Source: Eremomyces bilateralis CBS 781.70 (Eukaryota). From it: a stretch of DNA of 64,000 bases. The stretch is taken from the NCBI GenBank assembly GCA_010015585.1, contig ML975182.1, one strand, 5' to 3'. The stretch's first letter is position 1, and every line of letters starts with the position of its first letter. The translations under genes and the position numbers were made by a program. The notes beneath the pieces were generated by a model. It had not been told where the DNA came from. It ran no database searches and worked only from the letters and a program-made list of their open reading frames with translations. Shown here in pieces: positions 21,238 to 34,170 of the stretch.

Positions 21238-23279
21238 TCACTCATCACCTGCCTGATCTCCATCATCCACCCAACCATCCTCTCCAGCATTACCCTCCCC
21301 AGCTCCCCCTTTCGCCGCGTCAGCTCTCCCCTCACCCGCCCCCACTCCTTTCCACGGATCGGACATACTCCTCTTGCCCCTCCTCGGCGTCATCCCTCCC
21401 CGTCTCCCCCACCTCCTTCCAAGCATTGGCCTCCCGCCCACGCTACCTGGTCCACCACGCGGATGCGGACCAAACGGCAGAGAGAAAGGAAAGCTACCCG
21501 GTGGACCGCCACCCCCGAAGTCTGGATCGAGGCCCATGCCCATGCCCATTCCCATCATCGGGTGTCCAAACATGTTGCCGAGTCCCCAGGGGGGCATGCT
21601 GGAGGAGGGATCGTGTCCAGGGTCAGGGTGGATTCCTGGTTGGCCAGGGGTGTGCGGGGGCGGCTGGCCCTGGGTCGGGTAGGGTTGGGGAGGCGGTTGG
21701 TTAGGGTGGCCGAATAAAGGGTGTTGCTGCGTCGAGGGGTCGTATGGGGGAGGGAACGGATGCGGTGGATGTGCTTGAGGTGGAGGTGCTTGGGCACCTG
21801 CACGAGAGGAGCGGGATGGAGGACGCGGGAAGGGTGGGTATGGCGGTGGTGGAATTGGAGGGATCTTGTCTCCGGGTTTTGTGGACTGTCGCGGCGGCGG
21901 TCGTTTCTTTTCATCTTTCGGGGACGCATGTTGGGAGGGGGGTTGCGGCTTGGATTTGGAGGATTTCTTGCCGTTGCCGTTGTAGTTGCGTTTGCGGTTC
22001 GGTCGATCTAAGACGATGTTAGTTAGTTATGGATATTGGCGGGTAGATAGACACCGACGTGACGGGGCTGTCAAGCAGGAGGCTAGATATCATGATCGAA
22101 GTCCTCACCAGGATCGCCCAGCCCGCCTCCTCCAAAGTCATCCAAATCATTCAACCCGTTGCGTCCGCCGCGCATGAACGCGTCCGGATCATCCATCTCC
22201 AGCCCCACTCCGCCCCGGCCTCCAAATCCAAATCTCCCTCCCCCCTGACCTCGCCCACCACCAGGGCCAGACCGCCCGAACCGCTGTCGTCGCCCGAACG
22301 GGTGCTCCATACCCATATTCATACCACCGCCTTGCATTCCCGAGTCGTCGCCGAACATATCATCCCACCCACCTCCTCCATCACGTAGGCCGCCCATTCG
22401 ACCGCCCATGCCGCCCATGCCACCCATACCGCCCATCCCCGCCCCAGTCATGCGCCTTCTACCAGAGGACATTCGATTCACCCCTGGCCATGACCCTCCC
22501 ATAGCCATATCTTCCTCCCCGCCACCGTCCAAGTCCCCAAAATCACCACCACCACCACCACCACCTACTCCTCTCCGTCGCCCGCGCTGCCTTCCCCCAA
22601 ACGGGTTCGGTCCCTCTCGTACCTCCCTTTGGAGCCCATTAACCCGCTTCCCCAGCCCCTTAACCTTCCGCTCCAACCGCTCGATCGGCTCCGTATCGTC
22701 CGCGCCGCCTCGCAACTTAGTATTCCTCCCGCTCCATCCCCCATTTCCATTGCCGCCTCCGCATCCGCCTCCGTTGTCTCGGGTGGAACCAAAGCGACTC
22801 CGGCCACCGCCGCCATGCCCGCGGGGACATCCGCCCGGCCCCAACTCGAACTCGAAGTCGTCGTCGCCGATCCTCCCGGTGCCGGTCACCCGATCTTTGC
22901 AGCCGCATTTCTCTTTGCATCCACAGGCGCAGTCATGGCCGCACTCGCATTCGCCGTCCTTGCAGCCGCCACAGTCGGCGGAGCCTCCGCCTCCGCCTCG
23001 TAGTCCCATTCTCCTCCTACCACGACTGCCTCCTCCGCCGTCGTATATACCGTCTGCTCCACACGTACATGGGTTAGAGTATGCCGCGGGGGCTGACCGG
23101 TATCGTGGTCTGCGGGGAGGATAGGTGTATGGGCCGTAGGGATCGTAGACCGGGTCGTAATAGTGTCGACTGCCAGTGTACTGGTATCGGTAGGGCTCGC
23201 GAGGCGTTGGTGGAGGGGAGGGGTAGCGGCGGAAGGTTGTGGTGGGCTTCGAGGGAGTGCGGGAGTAAGGGATGCCCAT
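21238..23279 (-). CDS. Gly/Pro/Met-rich low-complexity protein with a Cys cluster and LRGG/RGG motifs
   Basis: A phase-1 intron 22008-22108 (GTGAGG..ACTAAC..TAG) joins ORF 22083-23498 in frame to the frame ending at 21238. Start codon uncertain. Confidence 0.6.
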
Positions 23280-24399
23280 TGGGCGAGCGTAGGGTTTGCG
23301 ACGGGGAACAGCTGTGGATGGCTGAGAAGGAATAGCGAATACTACAGCGCGTTTGAGCGTGTCATCTGGGGCTGGGGTGATTGAATAAGATGCAATCAAA
23401 GGCCACGTCTGATTAGAATGAGATGAAGAAGGGAAATGACTTGCATTTTCATTGTCATTTAGAAAACGGAAGCTGCCTGCCGTTTTATTGGACTCCACTC
23501 GTGTCTGCAGGTCGACGATTGTTTGTGCATAGTAGCATGTGTTCGGCTTGAGTTAGGTGCAATTGTTTGCTCGATGCTTGTAGGCGTCGGGTTGAACTGG
23601 GATATTAGGCCGCTTGGTCTAGGATCTAGACGGCTCTGTACCACTCGAGTGTGAAATCCAGTTGGCCCTCCTATTGGGGATATTAACCTCGAAGTGTCGC
23701 ATGTCCGGCGTCTTTCATACCGACTGTCTTTAATCTTATGTTGCCAGGAAAGGAGGAATAATTCTACGGCGTAAATATTTCCTTTCCGGACCAGTGAGCT
23801 GCCTCGTTTAGGCGCCTCAATGCTGCCACGTCCATGCTCTTTCTCTCAGTTCGCAGTCTCTTCGCTTATGCACGGTCGTTTGTTGTTGCGCCAGAGATTC
23901 AAATTTCGATTCTAGTTCAGATGACGATCTGTAGCTCTAACGTGTCGGGTCGACTGTGTATCTATGCTGGCCCAGGAAGTTGAAGGTAAGGTTGGCAATG
24001 GTGGAGAGGTGTCGCGATCATAAGCAACGATAATCAAAGGAGTTTGGCGCAGCGCGAATATTTGCCAAGCATCAAAACGCATGTCGTGACAACCGAATCG
24101 ACTTTTTCCGACAGATTAATATTGAAACAAGCGACTAAACGGCGATAAAGGCGATAGATAAATGATATTAACACCAAGCAGACTGGACGCCAATGGGACG
24201 AGTATTGAGCGATGAGATGGAAGAATAATGAAAGCAACTGCATCAGTACAACCACTTTGTTCAAGGACAGGATTTATCTCTAGACACAATGACTCAGCTC
24301 GTGTTTCCTACAGATATTCAAGGGCCAGTGCATAACTGGTTGCCCAACCGCGCACGTCGAGGGCTGCTTGATAGGACTCGGTGAGTTTGGCAGCACACT

Positions 24400-25584
24400 T
24401 TCCTGGCAATCGTTTGGATCTCTCGCGGATTTCGATATCGAAAATATATCAACAATTCATGATACAGGATCTGAATCCCACTTGGAACCGAAAGGTGAGA
24501 GATAATGCTTGGAGCTCAGAGCTGTCTGTACGTTCGAATTCCGAAGTCCATGACTACGGAGGAACGGCGTGTCTTCCAGGTTGTACCACAAGAACTACGG
24601 GTTTCATCGCATCCAACTGATGCGTCTAGAACACCGCATTTGGGAACATTCGAGAGTTCATATGCCCAAAGTTGAGCTGCCAACATAGGATTTGAAGGAT
24701 GGTTGTTGACATGGACTGACGTTGAAGAGGAGCTAAGGACGGGTTTGACCCACAATTCCTTTCGATTTCTAGTCTCCCCACACAAGGATTTTGTTCCGCC
24801 TTTCAAATTTCATGAACTCTCTCAGGTCCCCAATCCCGAGTCCATCACTCTCAGATTGGGATCTGGGCCTTCCTCAATCTTTTGTGATTATGAAAAGGAC
24901 TCCATGTCTTACCATGCCTGTGTCGAAGCTCAAAGTTAGACATCCCGGATAGCTAATGGCGAATACAAAAGCCACTCTCGCTCCTTGCTAGATGTGGTCC
25001 GAAAGCTTCCCGTTGACCCTCCCATCACACCAGGCATTTGGCAGCTGTGCATTCCATCGATGCCTGAGCTATAGCTTGCCTTATTCCTCGTTTGGACAAC
25101 CTGATACGATGTGCTTGTTCTCGAGGAACCAAGGAAGGTAAATGCGCCTATTATTTGAGGATATGTCGAGATGATGTTCTCCACGGGGTGACACTCGATG
25201 TCCAATCGTCGAGCTGCTCGGTTGAAACCATCAGATGATTCTGAAGTCCAACGTAGAGGCCCAGAAAATTGGACTCGGTCGCTGTACGACAGCGGTTGAA
25301 TCTATAGTCTTCCTTGGTTTGGGGGTCGCTTGGAAGTATTTCCTTCCCAACCGCGACTTCTAGGGTCTTTGCGGCTGTCATCGTGTGGCCAGGGCACGAC
25401 TTTTCTCTTGCGCATCTTGCACTACGGTACCAGGGCTTAGTACTTTCATAATAGGAGCACTTCCAGGACACTTCCATCGGTTTATGGTAGCAAATGCAAT
25501 AGCCAACAATGCCCCCTCCGGCAGAACCCTGGGTGGTGCAGGGGTCCTGATCACTGGGCAATGAAAGATAGATTTGGTATGCAA
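24400..25584 (-). pseudogene. Degenerate MYND-finger-associated fungal gene
   Basis: Eroded Cys motifs (..WYRSARC), PSDPQTKEDYRFNRC..FLGLYVGL and later SVVMDFG, spread over several frames with stops. Confidence 0.55.
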
Positions 25585-26174
25585 CTTAAGTTCCCTCTAT
25601 ATTGTTGCCTTTCTCTCGCTGTGTAAGTTGAAGTGCAGTAGTAATTGTTTTTTATTTGATAGCAAGCTGCATGTGTGGGGAGAGTTGTGTACATAAATTG
25701 TGTTGTGAGTGAGTGATACACCTGGAAACGGTAATTCTGTGGAGGTGCGATATTAATGGAGATCTGATTGGTTGATTGATGGCGAATGATGCGCTATTCC
25801 AGATAAAGACTAGTGCTAGTCGGTTGAAGCGAACCACACACAAATTGACTTCTCCAACTCTCACACATCACGAAACTTCAACCACCGCCGAACCATCCAC
25901 CCATCAACCGAGAGAGCATTGCATTGGTGTCGTTTGCGAATAGGTGAGTACTATCTACCAATTCCCTATTCATATCAGGTCTTCGATTGCAGTTGTCTGC
26001 CAATTCTCCGCCTCGAAACGATTCTGGACCCGGCAGGCGACGAGCAAACGAACCACATACTGCACCGATCCTCCTTCGATATCGTCTCCGTCACATCGAA
26101 ACCACATTCTGGACCATTACAGGGACGAAACGCTGACTTTGTTTATGATATAGCCTACTACATCAACCGCAATC

Positions 26175-26889
26175 ATGGGGTTTGTTCCAAACCGTCTCCT
26201 TCCTCCAACCCACCACCCGCTAACCTCCTCCCAGTATCTCACGAGACTCGCGCCATAAGCGCTCCGCCACCGGCGCCAAGCGTGCGCACTACCGCAAGAA
26301 GAGGTATGCATAACCCGATCGCTCCGTCAACCATGTCTGACATGGCTGTAGAGCTTTCGAGAAAGGTCGTCAACCGGCCAACACTCGCATCGGAGCGAAG
26401 CGCATACATCTCGTCCGCACCCGCGGCGGCAACCGCAAGTTCCGCGCCCTCCGCATCGACTCTGGCAACTTCTCCTGGGGCTCTGAGGGCATCGCCCGCA
26501 AGACCCGTGTCATCGTTGTCGCCTACCACCCGTCCAACAACGAGCTCGTCCGCACCAACACCCTGACCCGCTCGGCTGTCGTGCAGATCGACGCAGCGCC
26601 GTTCCGCCAGTGGTACGAGGCGCACTACGGCGCCAACCTGGGCCGGAGAAAGCAGCAGCAGGCCAAGGGGGGCGAGGTCGAGGAGAAGAAGAAGGAGAGC
26701 CGCGCCCTACAAGAGAAGCACGCCGAGCGACAGAAGACCGCCAAGGTGGAGTCGGCGTTGGAGAGGCAGTTCGAGGCCGGTCGGCTGTACGCCGTGGTGG
26801 CGTCACGGCCGGGCCAGAGCGGTCGTTGCGACGGATACATCCTGGAAGGGGAGGAGCTGGCTTTCTACCAGCGTGCCATCAGGAAGTAG
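26175..26889 (+). CDS. RPS8: 40S ribosomal protein S8 (eS8)
   Basis: MG|ISRDSRHKRSATGAKRAHYRKKR|AFEKGRQPANTRIG..RPGQSGRCDGYILEGEELAFY. Introns 26180-26234 and about 26304-26351, plus a probable 5'-UTR intron at 25944-26153. Confidence 0.97.
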
Positions 26890-27137
26890 GGGATGTTATG
26901 ATCTAGTCTCGGCGAAAATTCATGGTGCTGGGTTGCATCCGGAAAACTGGTGTATCGTTCAACTGCTGCATAGGGCGTTACCAATCATAAGAGCGTCAAA
27001 ATTCCAAAGACGTGCTCAATTCAAAACGGGCTGCATCCAGAATACATGTGACGTCGACATTTCTCATATTGTATCAAGAAAATGGTGCCTCATTCATAGT
27101 GTCATAGATCCGAGACGGAATGAATTCTATCTACTCC

Positions 27138-28541
27138 TCACACCTCCGCCTTCTCTTTCTCCTTCCTTTTCATCAAGTTCTTCGCCGTCTTAAACACCCC
27201 TCCGGTCGCCGCTCCACACGCCGCGCACGCCGGCGACTTCTTAAACCGCTCCAACGCGCACTTCTCGCAGAAATAATGCCCACACTTCGTCACCACGGGA
27301 TTCGAATACCCCTTTTTACAAATAAAGCACGCGAACGGGATCTCCTCCTTCTTCTCCCCCTCCTTCTCCTCCTTCTCCTTCTCCACCCCCCCCTTCTTCC
27401 GATTCCGCTCCACTTCCCACTCCTTGTCCAGCGCCCAACCCGCCTTATAGTCCTCGCGCGCGTGCAGGTACTTGCAGTTGTCGCCGTAGCCACAGAAGCC
27501 GGTCTGCTTGTAGTCCTTGCAGACGTCCGGGGCGAAGTCGATGTACGTCGTCATGCGGACGTTGGAGGAGGATTTGGTGGGGCCAACTTGCCGGGCGGAT
27601 TTGGTGGCTTCGTCGTTGGCGGTGGGTTGTGGGCCGGAGGGGGCGGTAGTTTGTGAGGGTGCTTGAAGGCCGGGGGAGATGCGTTTGGGGGCGGGGAGGG
27701 AGCGAGGGGAGGGTGATCGCTTGCGCTTGACGACGCGTTCGGGAGAGGTAGATGGGCTGCGTGCGCGAGGGGTGGGTGGGGAGGATGTACGGCTAGGGGA
27801 ACGGGCGTCGTCGTCGTCTCTCATATCGACGTCGGAGTCGGAGTGTAACTGGTCCGCGACCTTGCTTTCCCGCGGCTCTAGCTTTCCGTCGTCTTCCAGC
27901 ATGGTTCGGGTAGGCAGCTTCCACAGCGCGGTTCCGCACACGCGGTCTTTGCTGAGGAGGTCGTCGATGAACTGGTCCATATACGTCAAGATGAACCCGT
28001 CCTTGAGCCGTCGCTTCAGTTTACGATAGTCTTCGAGTCGCGGTTCGAGGGTGGAGTAGATTTCGACCGGATCCCATGCGAGCCGGATGTAGAAAGCAGC
28101 CAGCGCACGGAGGTATTTGAAGTCATTCCGACTTCCTAGTCGACCATTATGCGAATCCCCGTTGGCCGGCTTCGAATCTCCATTCCCCATCTCCGCATCA
28201 TCGCCATTCACACTCTTCTCATCCTCCTCCTCCGTCCAGTCCAAGTACTCCTTAACGACCGCTTTCGACGGCTGCAATTGCAGCATCTTGAACAGCAAGC
28301 ATAGGAACGGCGTCGGCCGCCCAAAATCACTATACGTCCCGCCAATGTACGTGAGCTCGGCGGCGCGGTCGCATAACGTCGCCTCGTTCAGCCCGAAGCA
28401 TTGCTCTTTCCAGTAGTAGGATTCCGTGATCCGGTCCCGCACACCGGTTTCGATCAGGGTCGCGGGATTTTTGCCGCGGAGGAGAGGGCCGCTGTAGCCT
28501 CGATTGTCGAGGAGTGCTGCTGCGTCGGCGCGATGCGCCAT
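27138..28541 (-). CDS. PRP38-CWC24: Prp38-Cwc24 fusion protein (PRP38 domain, RS/SP-rich linker, CCCH zinc finger, RING), 467 aa
   Basis: N-terminal RITESYYWKEQCFGLNEATLCDRA..PTPFLCLLFKMLQLQP..FKYLRALAAFYIRL. C-terminal DFAPDVCKDYKQTGFCGYGDNCKYLHAREDYKAGW and IPFACFIC..VVTKCGHYFCEKCAL..CAAC, in one uninterrupted frame. Confidence 0.9.
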   Translation of the reverse strand: MAHRADAAALLDNRGYSGPLLRGKNPATLIETGVRDRITESYYWKEQCFGLNEATLCDRAAELTYIGGTYSDFGRPTPFLCLLFKMLQLQPSKAVVKEYLDWTEEEDEKSVNGDDAEMGNGDSKPANGDSHNGRLGSRNDFKYLRALAAFYIRLAWDPVEIYSTLEPRLEDYRKLKRRLKDGFILTYMDQFIDDLLSKDRVCGTALWKLPTRTMLEDDGKLEPRESKVADQLHSDSDVDMRDDDDARSPSRTSSPPTPRARSPSTSPERVVKRKRSPSPRSLPAPKRISPGLQAPSQTTAPSGPQPTANDEATKSARQVGPTKSSSNVRMTTYIDFAPDVCKDYKQTGFCGYGDNCKYLHAREDYKAGWALDKEWEVERNRKKGGVEKEKEEKEGEKKEEIPFACFICKKGYSNPVVTKCGHYFCEKCALERFKKSPACAACGAATGGVFKTAKNLMKRKEKEKAEV

Positions 28542-29000
28542 CTTGAAGGGAGATGAGCTTGTCGCGGGCGGCGATGGACTTGTGGATTGACGAGGTTGAG
28601 TTGTGGGCTCCACGGAAGTGTCTCCGCTAGTCAAAAACCTTCGGGTATGTTCACTTCTTCAATCTCGGATTCTTGGATCTGAAAAGATCTGAATCATCGT
28701 GTCTCTTCCTTAAGCTACTCCATGCAAAACGGCCAGGTCCCAACTGTGGCGAATGCTGAGAAATGTTGGTGCACCGCCACTTCTCGAATCTGCCAGATCC
28801 CGGCTCATTGATATCCTCTAATTGGCTGGATGCCATCACCATAGCACCAGAACGCAAACAAACAGTTGACCAGCGTCATCAATGGTATTAATTACTGATG
28901 GGAAAAGCGACATCTTACACTTTGTGGATAGCATGATTTACAAGACGATATGACGATATAATGACCCATCTTACCCTTCTTGAATACAATTAAACGCAAA

Positions 29001-30376
29001 ATGGCTAGAATACTGCTCACGAGCGGACAGGTTTCCGTAGCACTGAGCTCTGGCGTCGGTAAGTAGACGAGTCCAAGAGACTCAACCACGAACAATAGAC
29101 CAGCCATTGACCACAGCACAGTCGTAATCTTCACCATCCTCCTCTTCCTAAGCGGCTACGTCCTCCAACAACAAACTGTCCGCTCCCTCCGCCACGCCAT
29201 CCGGCCGCCCCTCCCACCCCCTCCTCCCTCCCTCCCCCTCCAAGAACTCTCCACCCAAAACCCGCTCGCCAAATCTGCCCGCCTCCCCGGCACCGTCGTC
29301 AGCAAAGAAGCCGTGCAAGCCCACCTCGCCGCTGCCAGTGCCAGCCAGGCGATCGACTGGAAGCGGCGCGCCCATGTCCAACTCGTGCGCAGTCATGAGG
29401 AGGTCTGCGGCGCGGTCATGGTGTTCGCGGACTTATATCGGCTAAGGAGCCAGGGGAGCAGGGCGTTGGTGTTCCCGGCAGCGTGGGCGACGGCGTGGGG
29501 AGATGAGTGGGGGTATGAGACGAATCCGGAGGCGGAGCGGACGAGGCGGTTGCTGAAGAAGGCGGCGAGAAGGTATAAGGTGCATTTGGTACCGATGAAG
29601 GCGATTGAAGAGGGTGGTGATGGTATGTCGCATTTCTGCGCTTAGTGTGGTTCGACATGGTGCTGAACGTTTCCCCTATAGATTCGCTTCCCTCGTCATA
29701 TTCGTATGCAAGCCTATTCTCCTTGGATTGGTACGACAGGATACTGGCGCTCCCGCGACCCGGCGTCGTCCTCGATGCTGTTCCCCTAGACGTTCTCCTC
29801 GCGTTCGGTACCCCAGAGAGCCTGGCAACATCCGCTGCGGCGGAAGTACAATTCGACATTTCTCCTCAGAGCGAGATGACCCTGATCCGACCGTCGAAGG
29901 AGGAGTTCAGCCGGATCATGGATATCCGGGATGCGGATCAACTATCCGAGACGTCATTATTTAGCGAAGCTTTTCCTTCCCCCGAGAAGCTTTCGGCATT
30001 TGGAAACGCGGAGGTGGCGCTCATGGCGACGACAGGGAGCCTAAAGGAATATAGTATCCGGAAACAGGATCCCCCGGTGCCGGAAGATAACGTGCCTGGC
30101 TCGCCATCAGGGGAGCAACTGGTGGTGCAAGAGACCGCGGGACAGTCCGGTGCATTCAACGCCACGGAATTCATGCAGAATACTGCCTTTGTTCGCATCA
30201 TGGACGCTGGACTGCCGGGCCCTGAGTACGATGTGCCCCGGACCGAGATGCTCAAGGCGAAGCCATGGGGAGAAGCGGGGATGGTGTGGGAGTCGATGTA
30301 CGAGCGATTTCGTGCCCATCGGATGGATGTATGTGGGTTGGAGTTGGAGATGGTGCCGGAGAAAGAGGAATTGTAA
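29001..30376 (+). CDS. Type-II membrane, glycosyltransferase family 8-like protein
   Basis: MARILLTSGQVSVALSSG|VVIFTILLFLSGYVLQQQT, HVQLV..VCGAVMVFADL, SLPSSYSYASLFSL..YDRIL. Introns about 29059-29120 and 29623-29681. Divergent from the Prp38 fusion. Confidence 0.7.
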
Positions 30377-31550
30377 CATGTATTGGTATGTGTGGATATT
30401 TGGTTGTTTTGGGTATAGAATGGGTTCGATTTTCACGACTTCAATATATTATATGAACTTGGATGGGCTGCTGTGTCGTGTGAAATGGAAATGGCCGATG
30501 GGTCGGGACGGCCTTTGCTAGGGGTCGGGGTTTACTACTGGAGAACCGCGTTCACGTACATACCAAATTACGCGTTGGTCCGTATCCCGTAGGCCATGTT
30601 CACGCATCAACATACATGTTACATAGATAGGTACCCCCCCCCCTCCCTGAGTTCCTGGGGCTCTTAGGGGCAGAGGGTTGGGGTATGTCTTAGTAAGACA
30701 CGAATAACATGTTGTGGTGCACTGCAACACATTATTGCATGTGGATATTTTCAAGATAAGTACGTTTGATGGCAGGACAAGGCCAGGCGTTCAACTACCG
30801 GACGGTTCTCCATACTCGGTTCACTTCTTTCCTAGCCGAACTACCAAGAGTCAACCCAATAAAGACACAAGTTCTCCCGATATGTCGGCATTTGTTGGAC
30901 GCGAAGATACCTTGTATCGTTAGTATCATCCTGGTATTTTCCTCGACTTCCAGAGTCCAGTACCGGGATGCACTGGTATACAAGTATCCTTCCAAGAATC
31001 CAAGATCAGCTTTCGAGTCCTTGGAAACCCAGGTCCAGCGAATCAATTGGTTGATGTCAAACGAAGTCGTATCCAATGAGATCCAAAAGCCTGGATTTCA
31101 CCGATGCTGTGATGCAAGCCAGGGCAAGCTGCAGGGCGAACTACCAGTGGTTGCTCCTCTCTGCTAAGTCCTACAGTATCCATAACCGGGTGGCTAAGCA
31201 AGGCGAACTTGCATCAGGGCAGATTTGCCTTTTGATACCCCTCCAACGGTTCTCGTGATCGGATCATGAATGATCGCTTCTTAATTGCCTCGCGAGGCGC
31301 GCTCTTCTAAATAGTTCATGCTTGTCTTTCCTTTTGATGTCCTTAGGCGTTGATGGTTTTCAGTCCTGTCGTTCGTTTCCCTACCTCAATGTAACCCCTC
31401 TCGTACAATTGGGAACCAGATGTCTATCTGAACCTATTTTTTTTATCAAGCGCTCCTTTCCTTGCGAAAAGACGTCAAAAATTGAACAAGGCTGTCTCTA
31501 AGAAACGTGTTTAGTCCTTCGGTTACACTGTGACTCTTTCCTTCCAAATT

Positions 31551-33610
31551 ATGGCGCACAAGACATCCAAGTCCAAGCATTCGTCGAGACATCACCATGG
31601 AAAGAAATCCAAGTCGAGTACACAATCTAAGTCGAGGGCAACGGCAGCAACAGCAACTCCGATTCTTCACCACACCCAGTCAATCCGTCTACAACCGCAG
31701 CCGAGTCTACCAGTTCTACCGATCCGAACCGCATCGACACCGAAGTCACCACCTCCTTGCTATCATTCCACACAAGCAGGCTATCCTCGGGCAGTAAATC
31801 TCCCCCAACGCTACCCTCCTACCCATCCGCCGGCACCCCACTGGGCATCAACAACGAATCTAGCAATGTTACGTCCTCAGACTCACCCACCAGTTCGTCA
31901 GGGCCATCGTCCTCCAGATCAAAGAAAGGTCAAATGGTCAGACCGACTACACCTGCCCTCCACTGTGGCGAGGCCGCTCCACGCCGCATCTGCGTCCGTA
32001 AGCAATCTACAGGACACTGTACGGGGTCTGAATGATGGCGCGAATGATGTATTGAACCAGCGAGGGGCGGGGTATGTGGGACGAGCGGCGGGGATATATG
32101 AGCTATGTGCACAGTATCTCGACGATATCATCACGCAAATCGATGGGGAGGTCTTGGGTACTGAAACTGGACGACCAACGAATACTCAAACAGCGTATCA
32201 TCCAAATCCGCAGTGGCAGCAATCGATGCCATATCTTCCACCACCACCGCAACCATACGCTCCTGCAGCCCCCCCACACTTGAATCACACCCTCCAACCC
32301 TTCGCCGAACCAGCCCTCCCACTCCCCACCTCCACCTACTTCTCAAAAGTCTGGTTGTACTCCAACTCCCGCCTCCCACCGCATCTCCCACCCCTGAAAC
32401 TCTACCTCCCAACCTATCCCCTCCTCACCCTCGCGGCCCGCCACAGCCTGCTCGCCTACTCCCCACCCCCACCCTCCAACATCAGCACGTCCCCATCCAC
32501 CACCACCCTCACTAGTCCTGCCGCTGCCCCCTACCTAAAATCTTTCATCCTCCGCACCGTCCCTGTCTCCACGTCCCCGCACACCCACACCGTCATCCTC
32601 TCCATCCGCGGTAGCGCCTCCTTCACCGACTGGTCTATCAACCTCCACACCACCCCGCAACCCCCTCTCCCCCTCCTCGACGACCCGGGCAACCTCACCC
32701 ACGGCGGCTTCCTCGCCGTCGCCGTCGCCATGCTCCCCTGCGTTGCCCGCCATCTCACCACCCTCCTCGACGGCATCCTCGCCGCGGACCTGTCCCGTCA
32801 GCGCGACGGCCGCCACCGTCCCCCAAAAATCACCCTCCTCCTCACCGGCCACTCTGCCGGCGGCGCCATCGCCTCCCTCCTCTACGCCCACCTAGGAACC
32901 ACCACCCCCGCCTGCACCTCTCCCCTCCGCACCCTCCGCTCCCGCTTCCGCCGCATCCACTGCATCACCTTCGGCGCCCCGCCCATCACCCTCCTCCCGC
33001 TTCGCAAGCCGTCACCTCCTCCCGCAAACGGGCGCGACGACACGGCCGCATCGAACCCCGACTGGCGCTCCTCCCTCTTCTTCTCCTTCGTCAACGAGGG
33101 CGACCCCGTCGCACGCGCCGATCCCGCCGTTGTCCGCTCGCTGCTGAAGCTGTACGCATCATCACCACCGCCGCAGACGATGGCGGCGGCGGGGTCGGCG
33201 CCGCGGTGGGAGGTGCCGCCAGGGATGCTGAGCTGCGCGGGGCGGATCGTGCTGTTGCGGGGGTATCATCCGCAGAAGGGTGGAAGGGCGAAGAAGGGGA
33301 GGCGGGTGGGAAAGGTGGGTGGGAAGATGGGGGGGAAGAAGACGGGGCTGGNNNNNNNNNNNNNNNNNNNNNNNNNNNNNNNNNNNNNNNNNNNNNNNNN
33401 NNNNNNGGGGAGGGAAGTTTGGCGAGGGGGATGGGATTGGGGTTAGGTGGGGCGGGGGATGGTGGGAGGGAGGAGGAGATACCGGCGGCGTTTGTGGTGG
33501 ATGATGGAATGTTGAGGACAGCGGTGTTTGGGGATCCGATGGCGCATCAGATGCGGGTTTACGTGCGTAGGGTGGAGGGGTTGGCGATGCGGGCAGTGAT
33601 GGGAGGGTAA
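31551..33610 (+). CDS. Class-3 lipase (alpha/beta hydrolase) spanning an assembly gap
   Basis: LSIRGS..DWSIN, THGGFL, LLLTGHSAGG (GxSxG), CITFGAPP, FVNEGDPV, FGDPMAH. N-run at 33352-33406. Confidence 0.85.
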
Positions 33611-34170
33611 GGTACGAGGAGCCGGCCGATTCCTATTATTTTGAGCATAATAGCGATCTGGGGTTAACGAGCAATGATACCCATTTGATTCTCTTATGAA
33701 AATAGATCGAGAGAATCGGGATATCGTGAGAAACGGCGAATGCAGCACGTCAACGCGGCTGCGAAACAATATTTATTGCACATAATAATCCATGGATACC
33801 CGTCTAAACATACAAGGCATATCATTTCCCCGTGCTCGTGCCGTTGCCGACCGCATTAAGAGGCTCAATTTCCCAACCAGCTCCAGCCCTCCCAATCCCG
33901 CCGTCCGCCATACACGCGTTGCCCAAAAACACCACCACTCGCCAAGTGGCCGTCCACACGGCGCATGCATGATTCGGTCCCCTCTATTGCCGGCGACCTG
34001 CGCACCGGGCCGGTCGGCGGCGATCGCGTCAAGATCCGTCCCGGTCGTGGATGTATGTGAAATGATGAGATATTAGGTTGGCGATACGATGCGCAAGATA
34101 TCCAAGATAGGTCCGCAATTCGGCCGATAAGACCGGATGTTCCTCCGCGTCTGACACCAAGTCTGTCCAT

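Follow-up and report, generated by a model that had tools for sequence, protein, structure and literature searches.

Can a single gene provide two proteins that the spliceosome takes up at successive stages of its activation, and what would then become of the exchange between them? The question is raised by a locus in which, according to a sequence-only reading, one reading frame is a fusion of Prp38 with Cwc24/RNF113, two proteins that are otherwise made separately. The window (the whole stretch of DNA that was analysed, 64 kb in length) was searched for open reading frames. In this listing, positions 27138..28541 (-) make up a single ATG-to-stop frame of 467 amino acids, and both of its parts find matches in Pfam and in the PDB, which confirms the proposed fusion. 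The features of the locus are the following.

26862..28655, minus strand: transcribed unit, given as the extent of a contig from sequencing run X3 (contig cover, not single molecules)
28542..28655, minus strand: 5' UTR of 114 nt, without an upstream ATG; start context aagATGg
27138..28541, minus strand: fused coding sequence, 467 codons and a TGA stop, intron-free (ORF listing, Pfam, PDB matches and contig cover)
27888..28481, minus strand: PRP38 domain, residues 21-218 (Pfam PF03371 and match to 5f5t)
28125..28235, minus strand: acidic and Gly-rich insertion in the PRP38 domain, residues 103-139 (37 residues), with low pLDDT and no joint
27552..27836, minus strand: S/P/R/K-rich linker, predicted to be disordered, residues 236-330, with the conserved core RSPSRTSSPPTP..RVVKRKRSPSP
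27708..27737, minus strand: junction zone, residues 269-278, where BLASTP alignments with Prp38 and with Cwc24 meet
27462..27527, minus strand: CCCH zinc finger, residues 339-360 (Pfam and ligand check)
27210..27332, minus strand: C3HC4 RING finger, residues 404-444 (Pfam and ligand check; pLDDT 81-89)
26862..27137, minus strand: 3' UTR of 276 nt, which meets the 3' end of the convergent eS8 gene

The amino-terminal part is a Prp38 protein by every measure applied. Pfam PF03371 matches residues 21-218 with 201.9 bits (cut-off 22.4; E 8.9e-60), over positions 3-172 of the 173 of the profile. In a PDB sequence search, residues 2-229 match Chaetomium Prp38 (5f5t, E 2.9e-62), and a further Prp38 structure, 4rza, is also found (E 3.9e-43). 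Aspartate D189 aligns with D145 of human Prp38 (counted by hand on the PDB-match alignment, the residue then being checked), and the human D145A substitution abolished the interaction of hsPrp38 with scSpp381, Spp381 being the yeast orthologue of MFAP1 (excerpt of PMC5364666). Membership of the PRP38 family thus rests on a score above the Pfam cut-off, on the match to solved structures together with the helical fold, and on the aspartate of the MFAP1/Spp381 contact. The insertion at residues 103-139 is coding sequence, not an intron: a comparable one is found in the Prp38 of Trichodelitschia, and it recurs with in-frame indels in P0002, a second fused protein described below.

The carboxyl-terminal part is equally recognizable. 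It carries a zf-CCCH match at residues 339-360 (33.3 bits, cut-off 20.5) with all four ligands kept (C341, C350, C356 and H360, spaced C-x8-C-x5-C-x3-H), followed by a C3HC4 RING at residues 404-444 (32.1 bits, cut-off 27), in which the eight ligands C405, C408, C420, H422, C425, C428, C439 and C442 are all present. Residues 304-465 align with residues 165-322 of the human RNF113A chain (5z56_M, E 1.7e-48), and residues 312-464 with residues 115-258 of the yeast Cwc24 chain (5gm6_a, E 3.1e-40). The C3H finger, the C3HC4 RING downstream of it and the whole of the core that is visible in Bact structures are therefore those of Cwc24/RNF113A; the conserved N-terminal region of that family, with its FKKR motif, is absent. 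The two parts of the ORF differ in third-position GC, at 0.72 for Prp38 and 0.85 for Cwc24, in a small sample. An internal stop or splice joint was looked for in 27138..28541, in the ORF listing and in the run contigs, and none was found. The layout that had been read from the letters, a full PRP38 domain, an RS/SP-rich linker, a CCCH finger and a RING with neither stop nor intron, is thus borne out by Pfam, by the ORF listing and by the contigs.

The reality of the locus was judged by comparing contigs from four runs, X1, X2, X3 and X4, with positions 22000-34000 of the window (12 kb). X1 and X2 are DNA-type runs of one sample, possibly the very source of the assembly, and hence are not independent of it. 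X3 belongs to another sample and another study than X1 and X2 and is labelled 'RNA?'; X4 bears another organism label. The 12-kb stretch displays seven splice-like joints (five GT..AG, one CT..AC and one GT..AT), all in X3 contigs, and none was found over 22000-34000 in the contigs of X1, X2 or X4. Since all seven are confined to X3 and lie in neighbouring genes, we infer that X3 holds processed RNA. One X3 contig (record 17; 1807 nt, of which 1794 are aligned) covers 26862..28655 with no difference, no gap and no joint. Its loose end at 28655 is Illumina adapter, which fits a transcript 5' end at that position. DNA contigs of X1 (18,993 nt) and X2 (3,422 nt) cross 27550-27900, the interval over which misassembly had been singled out for a check, and there, too, the number of differences is zero in all three runs. 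The whole fused ORF is thus transcribed unspliced; this is contig evidence, compatible with internal starts or poly(A) sites.

The same comparison provided a view of the flanking genes. On the 3' side lies the convergent gene for ribosomal protein eS8 (25894-26862, plus strand), with three spliced introns at 25940-26149, 26179-26233 and 26302-26349 (small cut offsets). In the first of these, beside the main GT..AG form, a single minor X3 contig has a joint from 25943 to 26147 with GT..AT borders, which may reflect alternative splicing of that intron or a splicing error. Further on, 22586-24689 (minus strand) is a transcribed gene with one intron of 50 nt (23670-23719), and in its Gly/Cys-rich product CxC and CGC motifs follow one another in a metallothionein-like manner. 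A short GC-rich element at 22402-22439 has further matches in other long contigs, those of X4 as well as X1-X3, and resembles either a short dispersed repeat or a conserved motif coding for Gly/Pro. On the 5' side, the divergent gene 28901-30926 (plus strand; introns 29058-29120 and 29622-29680) encodes about 420 amino acids with an N-terminal hydrophobic segment. Only about 250 nt separate the start of its transcript contig from the fused gene's 5' end, and a bidirectional promoter region is therefore probably shared. Beyond it, 31432-33243 (plus strand) is a transcribed, intron-free gene whose Pro-rich product contains GHSAGG, a motif that would be typical of class 3 lipases. Contigs of X1 break at 33351-33407, and an X2 contig has a 5-nt deletion at 33402, within a G-rich low-complexity run; this is likely an assembly-unstable spot.

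Is the fusion peculiar to one genome? A HMMER search of 1.84 billion (1.84e9) cluster representatives returned 3394 hits; among the best 150, only one protein, P0002, matches both halves, and the others cover either the query up to about residue 300 or the query from about residue 216 on. A lineage-restricted fusion, as had been supposed, is therefore what the search found. Word-indexed searches agree: with the full-length query at 90% clustering, both domain sets occur in 2 of the 120 proteins listed, namely the query and P0002, and the same two were recovered (again 2 of 120 listed) with residues 236-467. Among proteins of fewer than 256 residues, none of the 120 listed has both domain sets. 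Among the listed word-indexed matches, unfused proteins reach at most 67% identity to either half, and no description of a Prp38-Cwc24/RNF113 fusion was found in the open-access literature searched. From these searches the fusion appears to be very rare, with one other organism known to share the arrangement; it is a new domain architecture made from two well-known families.

P0002 is a protein of 462 amino acids encoded on another organism's contig. It has the same architecture and is 80% identical over the full length, the identities being 87/102 and 88/96 in the Prp38 core, 35/40 in the zinc finger (residues 331-370) and 45/50 in the RING. Its linker is as informative as its domains. Indeed, 75 of 102 linker columns are identical, the core at residues 247-280 is conserved in 33 of 35, and the frame is kept through three gap events. 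The conservation of the linker core between the two proteins is at least equal to that of the Prp38 core, the finger and the RING. This second sequence matters for the following reason. When the 95 GC-rich codons of the linker were shuffled by mononucleotides, 4692 of 20000 shuffles were also open, so that the openness of the linker, seen in one genome alone, has no statistical significance. The fused frame is more than chance because P0002 keeps it through the linker gaps.

An AlphaFold2 model built on an alignment of 45 rows has a mean pLDDT of 68.4, unevenly distributed. Block means are mostly 79-95 in the Prp38 part, falling to 47-68 in the 103-139 insertion and to 50-59 around residues 171-190; they are 70-78 in the CCCH finger and 81-89 in the RING. 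Residues 247-270 and 272-338 have values below 50. The protein is thus predicted to consist of two confidently folded modules joined by a disordered tether of about 90 residues. Set beside an extended RS domain, this linker, of about 30-90 residues, is short and has more Ser-Pro than Arg-Ser; with the RS tails of the two nearest Prp38s it scores above its shuffles (see below).

Where within the linker one parent ends and the other begins was approached by BLASTP. The alignment with Prp38 of Trichodelitschia (P0080) reaches query residue 278, and that with Cwc24 of Lineolata (P0176), a stand-alone protein that is 52% identical to the fused Cwc24 part over 208 columns, begins at query residue 269, which corresponds to residue 42 of P0176 (RVVKRKR against RVKRRR). 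As judged from these alignments, the two proteins are joined nearly end to end, Prp38 contributing a short acidic and RS/SP tail and Cwc24 lacking its first 41 residues or so. The sequence-only reading had the N-terminal region of Cwc24 missing. This holds for the first ~41 residues, including the FKKR motif, which is present in all nine aligned stand-alone Cwc24 proteins; it does not hold for the rest, which is kept from residue 42 onwards. The basic and acidic C-terminal tail of stand-alone Cwc24 proteins is also gone from the fusion. In shuffle tests, the linker scored above shuffles with three of five Prp38 RS tails (0, 3 and 11 of 2000), two of which belong to the nearest Prp38s (P0080, 0/2000; P0023, 3/2000). 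With Cwc24 N-termini the best result was 31 of 2000, and eight of nine comparisons were not significant. These tests favour a Prp38-tail ancestry for the first part of the linker, and RVVKRKR might mark the start of a Cwc24 N-terminal remnant. Because the linker is of low complexity, a zone (residues 269-278) is given here and not a firm breakpoint.

Both halves find their relatives in the same class of fungi. In quick maximum-likelihood trees, the Prp38 half falls inside the Dothideomycetes, next to Microthyrium and Trichodelitschia (SH-aLRT 96), and the Cwc24 core next to Lineolata, also a Dothideomycete (SH-aLRT 91 with core columns, 92 with all columns). Both stand on long stems. That of the Prp38 half measures 0.85 against a median end branch of 0.31 (about 2.7-fold), and that of the Cwc24 core 0.83 changes per column against a median of 0.14; the latter stem was 1.84 before restriction to the core columns, a value inflated by low-complexity columns. 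On these trees both halves look vertically inherited, which fits a local fusion. How the two genes came together was examined at 80 metagenome loci encoding fungal Cwc24 relatives (980,688 nt in total; at 52 of them the upstream sequence is 3 kb or longer). When the Prp38 half was used as a tblastn query, no hit was obtained in the 980,688 nt; a PRP38 gene was thus found beside CWC24 at none of the 80 other fungal loci. This speaks against the tandem arrangement being widespread, and is silent on the immediate ancestors. The suggestion that the fusion arose by deletion between neighbouring genes finds no support in this result: a simple deletion between long-standing neighbours is not supported, though an adjacency restricted to the lineage may have existed. 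When positions 15000-42000 of the window were compared with these 80 loci by tblastx, matches beyond the gene itself were scattered and of no use for synteny, and no second copy of a PRP38 or CWC24 gene was found within the 64-kb window.

What such a protein might do is best considered against what is known of its two parents. In the human B complex, PRP38 sits on the U6/5'ss helix and bridges two domains of PRP8 (excerpt of PMC10943123). In yeast, according to excerpts of PMC11850228, the B-complex proteins depart after NTC arrival in 85% of 117 events, their release taking place 'by an unknown mechanism', and Prp38 bearing a C-terminal SNAP tag supports splicing in extract. Cwc24 arrives with the NTC or shortly after it, and its crosslinks map to G1 and U2 at the 5' splice site. 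The zinc finger of Cwc24 is essential and its RING dispensable in yeast, where residues 1-137 bind the C-terminal domain of Brr2, and a protein without residues 1-127 leaves cells viable with more than 10-fold more protein being needed (excerpts of PMC6821175). In yeast, the Cwc24 N-terminus raises the affinity of the protein for the spliceosome. In human, RNF113A is recruited in the transition from pre-Bact to Bact-I, once PRP38 has gone, and binds the 5'SS (excerpt of PMC11283556); the excerpt of PMC13332222 has it absent from a stalled pre-Bact state that still contains PRP38.

Compared with Prp38/PRPF38A of known structure (5f5t, 4rza, 5o9z), the fused protein has the full alpha-helical domain and, in D189, the counterpart of human D145; with the nearest Dothideomycete Prp38s it also shares an acidic tail followed by an RS/SP-rich one. 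Unlike them, it has no stop after this tail, in which the RS stretch is short, and runs on into Cwc24. Human PRPF38A, too, has a core followed by an Arg/Ser-rich low-complexity region (excerpt of PMC5364666), but the region is only about 30-90 residues long here, is rich in Ser-Pro, and links a second folded module. With Cwc24/Cwf24/RNF113A it has in common the finger, the C3HC4 RING and the segment preceding the finger, that is, the part visible by cryo-EM; it differs in that Prp38 takes the place of the free N-terminus, some 41 residues and the C-terminal tail having been lost. A further point of comparison is the non-covalent Prp38-Snu23-MFAP1/Spp381 subcomplex of B-complex proteins, in which Prp38 arrives with a zinc-finger protein, Snu23, that sits on the U6/5'ss helix (excerpts of PMC10943123 and PMC11850228). 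In the fusion Prp38 is joined to a different, 5' splice-site-binding zinc finger; this tie is a covalent one, and it is made with a factor of the following assembly stage and not of the B stage.

The locus is a real gene, transcribed and free of introns, that belongs to a Dothideomycete-like filamentous fungus. That it encodes one bifunctional spliceosome protein whose Prp38 module pre-loads the Cwc24 finger beside the U6/5' splice-site helix we consider somewhat more probable than not, the mechanism being an inference. With its Prp38 module docked against this helix, where solved B complexes place Prp38, the protein would join the spliceosome at the B stage. In this way the Prp38 module would take over the recruiting job of the lost, Brr2-binding N-terminus of Cwc24, and the flexible tether of about 90 residues would hold the CCCH finger at high local concentration near its later site. 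When the Prp38 site is dismantled in activation, the finger could cap the 5' splice-site GU at once, and the Prp2 step would release the entire protein. A B-specific factor would thereby give way to a Bact factor through an intramolecular swap, a rewired B-to-Bact hand-off such as the sequence-only reading had suggested. One point speaks against such a scheme: Prp38 normally leaves before Bact, so that being tethered for good might do harm if the linker did not permit undocking.

Other accounts of the locus have to be weighed against this one. That two genes were wrongly joined in assembly or annotation, or that an intron or a frameshift was overlooked, is extremely unlikely. It is true that X1 and X2, as possible source data of the assembly, offer no independent check, but X3 spans the junction with no difference and comes from another sample and study, P0002 of another organism is fused identically, and the ORF is without a GT..AG joint, whereas the neighbouring genes display theirs. 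The more serious doubt concerns the role of the gene. Stand-alone PRP38 and CWC24 elsewhere might do the essential work, the fusion being an extra chimeric copy and a fast-evolving accessory or regulatory variant. The long stems of both halves would also fit a relaxed extra copy, and so would the loss of the Cwc24 N-terminal motif and of the acidic C-terminal tail; the absence of introns, where three of the four neighbouring transcribed genes have one to three, fits a chimera derived from a retrocopy; and with PRP38 and CWC24 adjacent at none of the 80 other loci, read-through of adjacent originals is not evident. We nevertheless regard an extra copy as rather unlikely, given that the in-frame fusion is kept in two organisms whose proteins differ by 20%, that the finger and the RING are so largely identical in P0002 (35/40 and 45/50) with every metal ligand kept, that the locus is transcribed, and that the 67% ceiling on identity to unfused proteins among the listed matches speaks against a recent duplicate. 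A bolder reading is that the lineage obtains both essential factors from the fused gene alone, so that its spliceosome would run with a B-specific protein in covalent linkage with a Bact-specific one; we propose this tentatively, short of favouring it.

It may also be asked whether one locus yields two proteins, Prp38 and Cwc24 being made separately through an internal transcript, through initiation at Met240 or Met329, or through cleavage of the linker. Met240 does lie ahead of the whole Cwc24-like part, both methionines are conserved in P0002, the long linker, being predicted as disordered, would be accessible to proteases, and internal transcript starts would escape the contig data. This account is nonetheless doubtful, and distinctly less credible than that of an extra copy: the Prp38 part is not followed by an in-frame stop, so that any full-length mRNA codes for the fusion; the X3 contigs have no end, adapter-tagged end or joint within 27138-28541; and a mere cleavage spacer would give no obvious reason for 33 of 35 positions of the linker core to be conserved.

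During its activation the spliceosome exchanges dozens of proteins, and what enforces the fixed order of these swaps is an open question. A natural protein that ties the outgoing Prp38, on the U6/5'ss helix, to the incoming Cwc24, at the 5' splice-site GU, amounts to a ready-made experiment on this point. Gene fusions often indicate a functional link between the partners, and this one also links Prp38 and Cwc24 functionally. If stand-alone copies exist, the gene would be a minor lineage-specific chimera. If it is the sole copy, Prp38 needs only to undock, its physical departure not being required, and bringing the Cwc24 finger to the 5' splice site can be hard-wired to the step before it. The fusion also offers a stable handle with which to trap or image the B-to-Bact transition in a fungal system.
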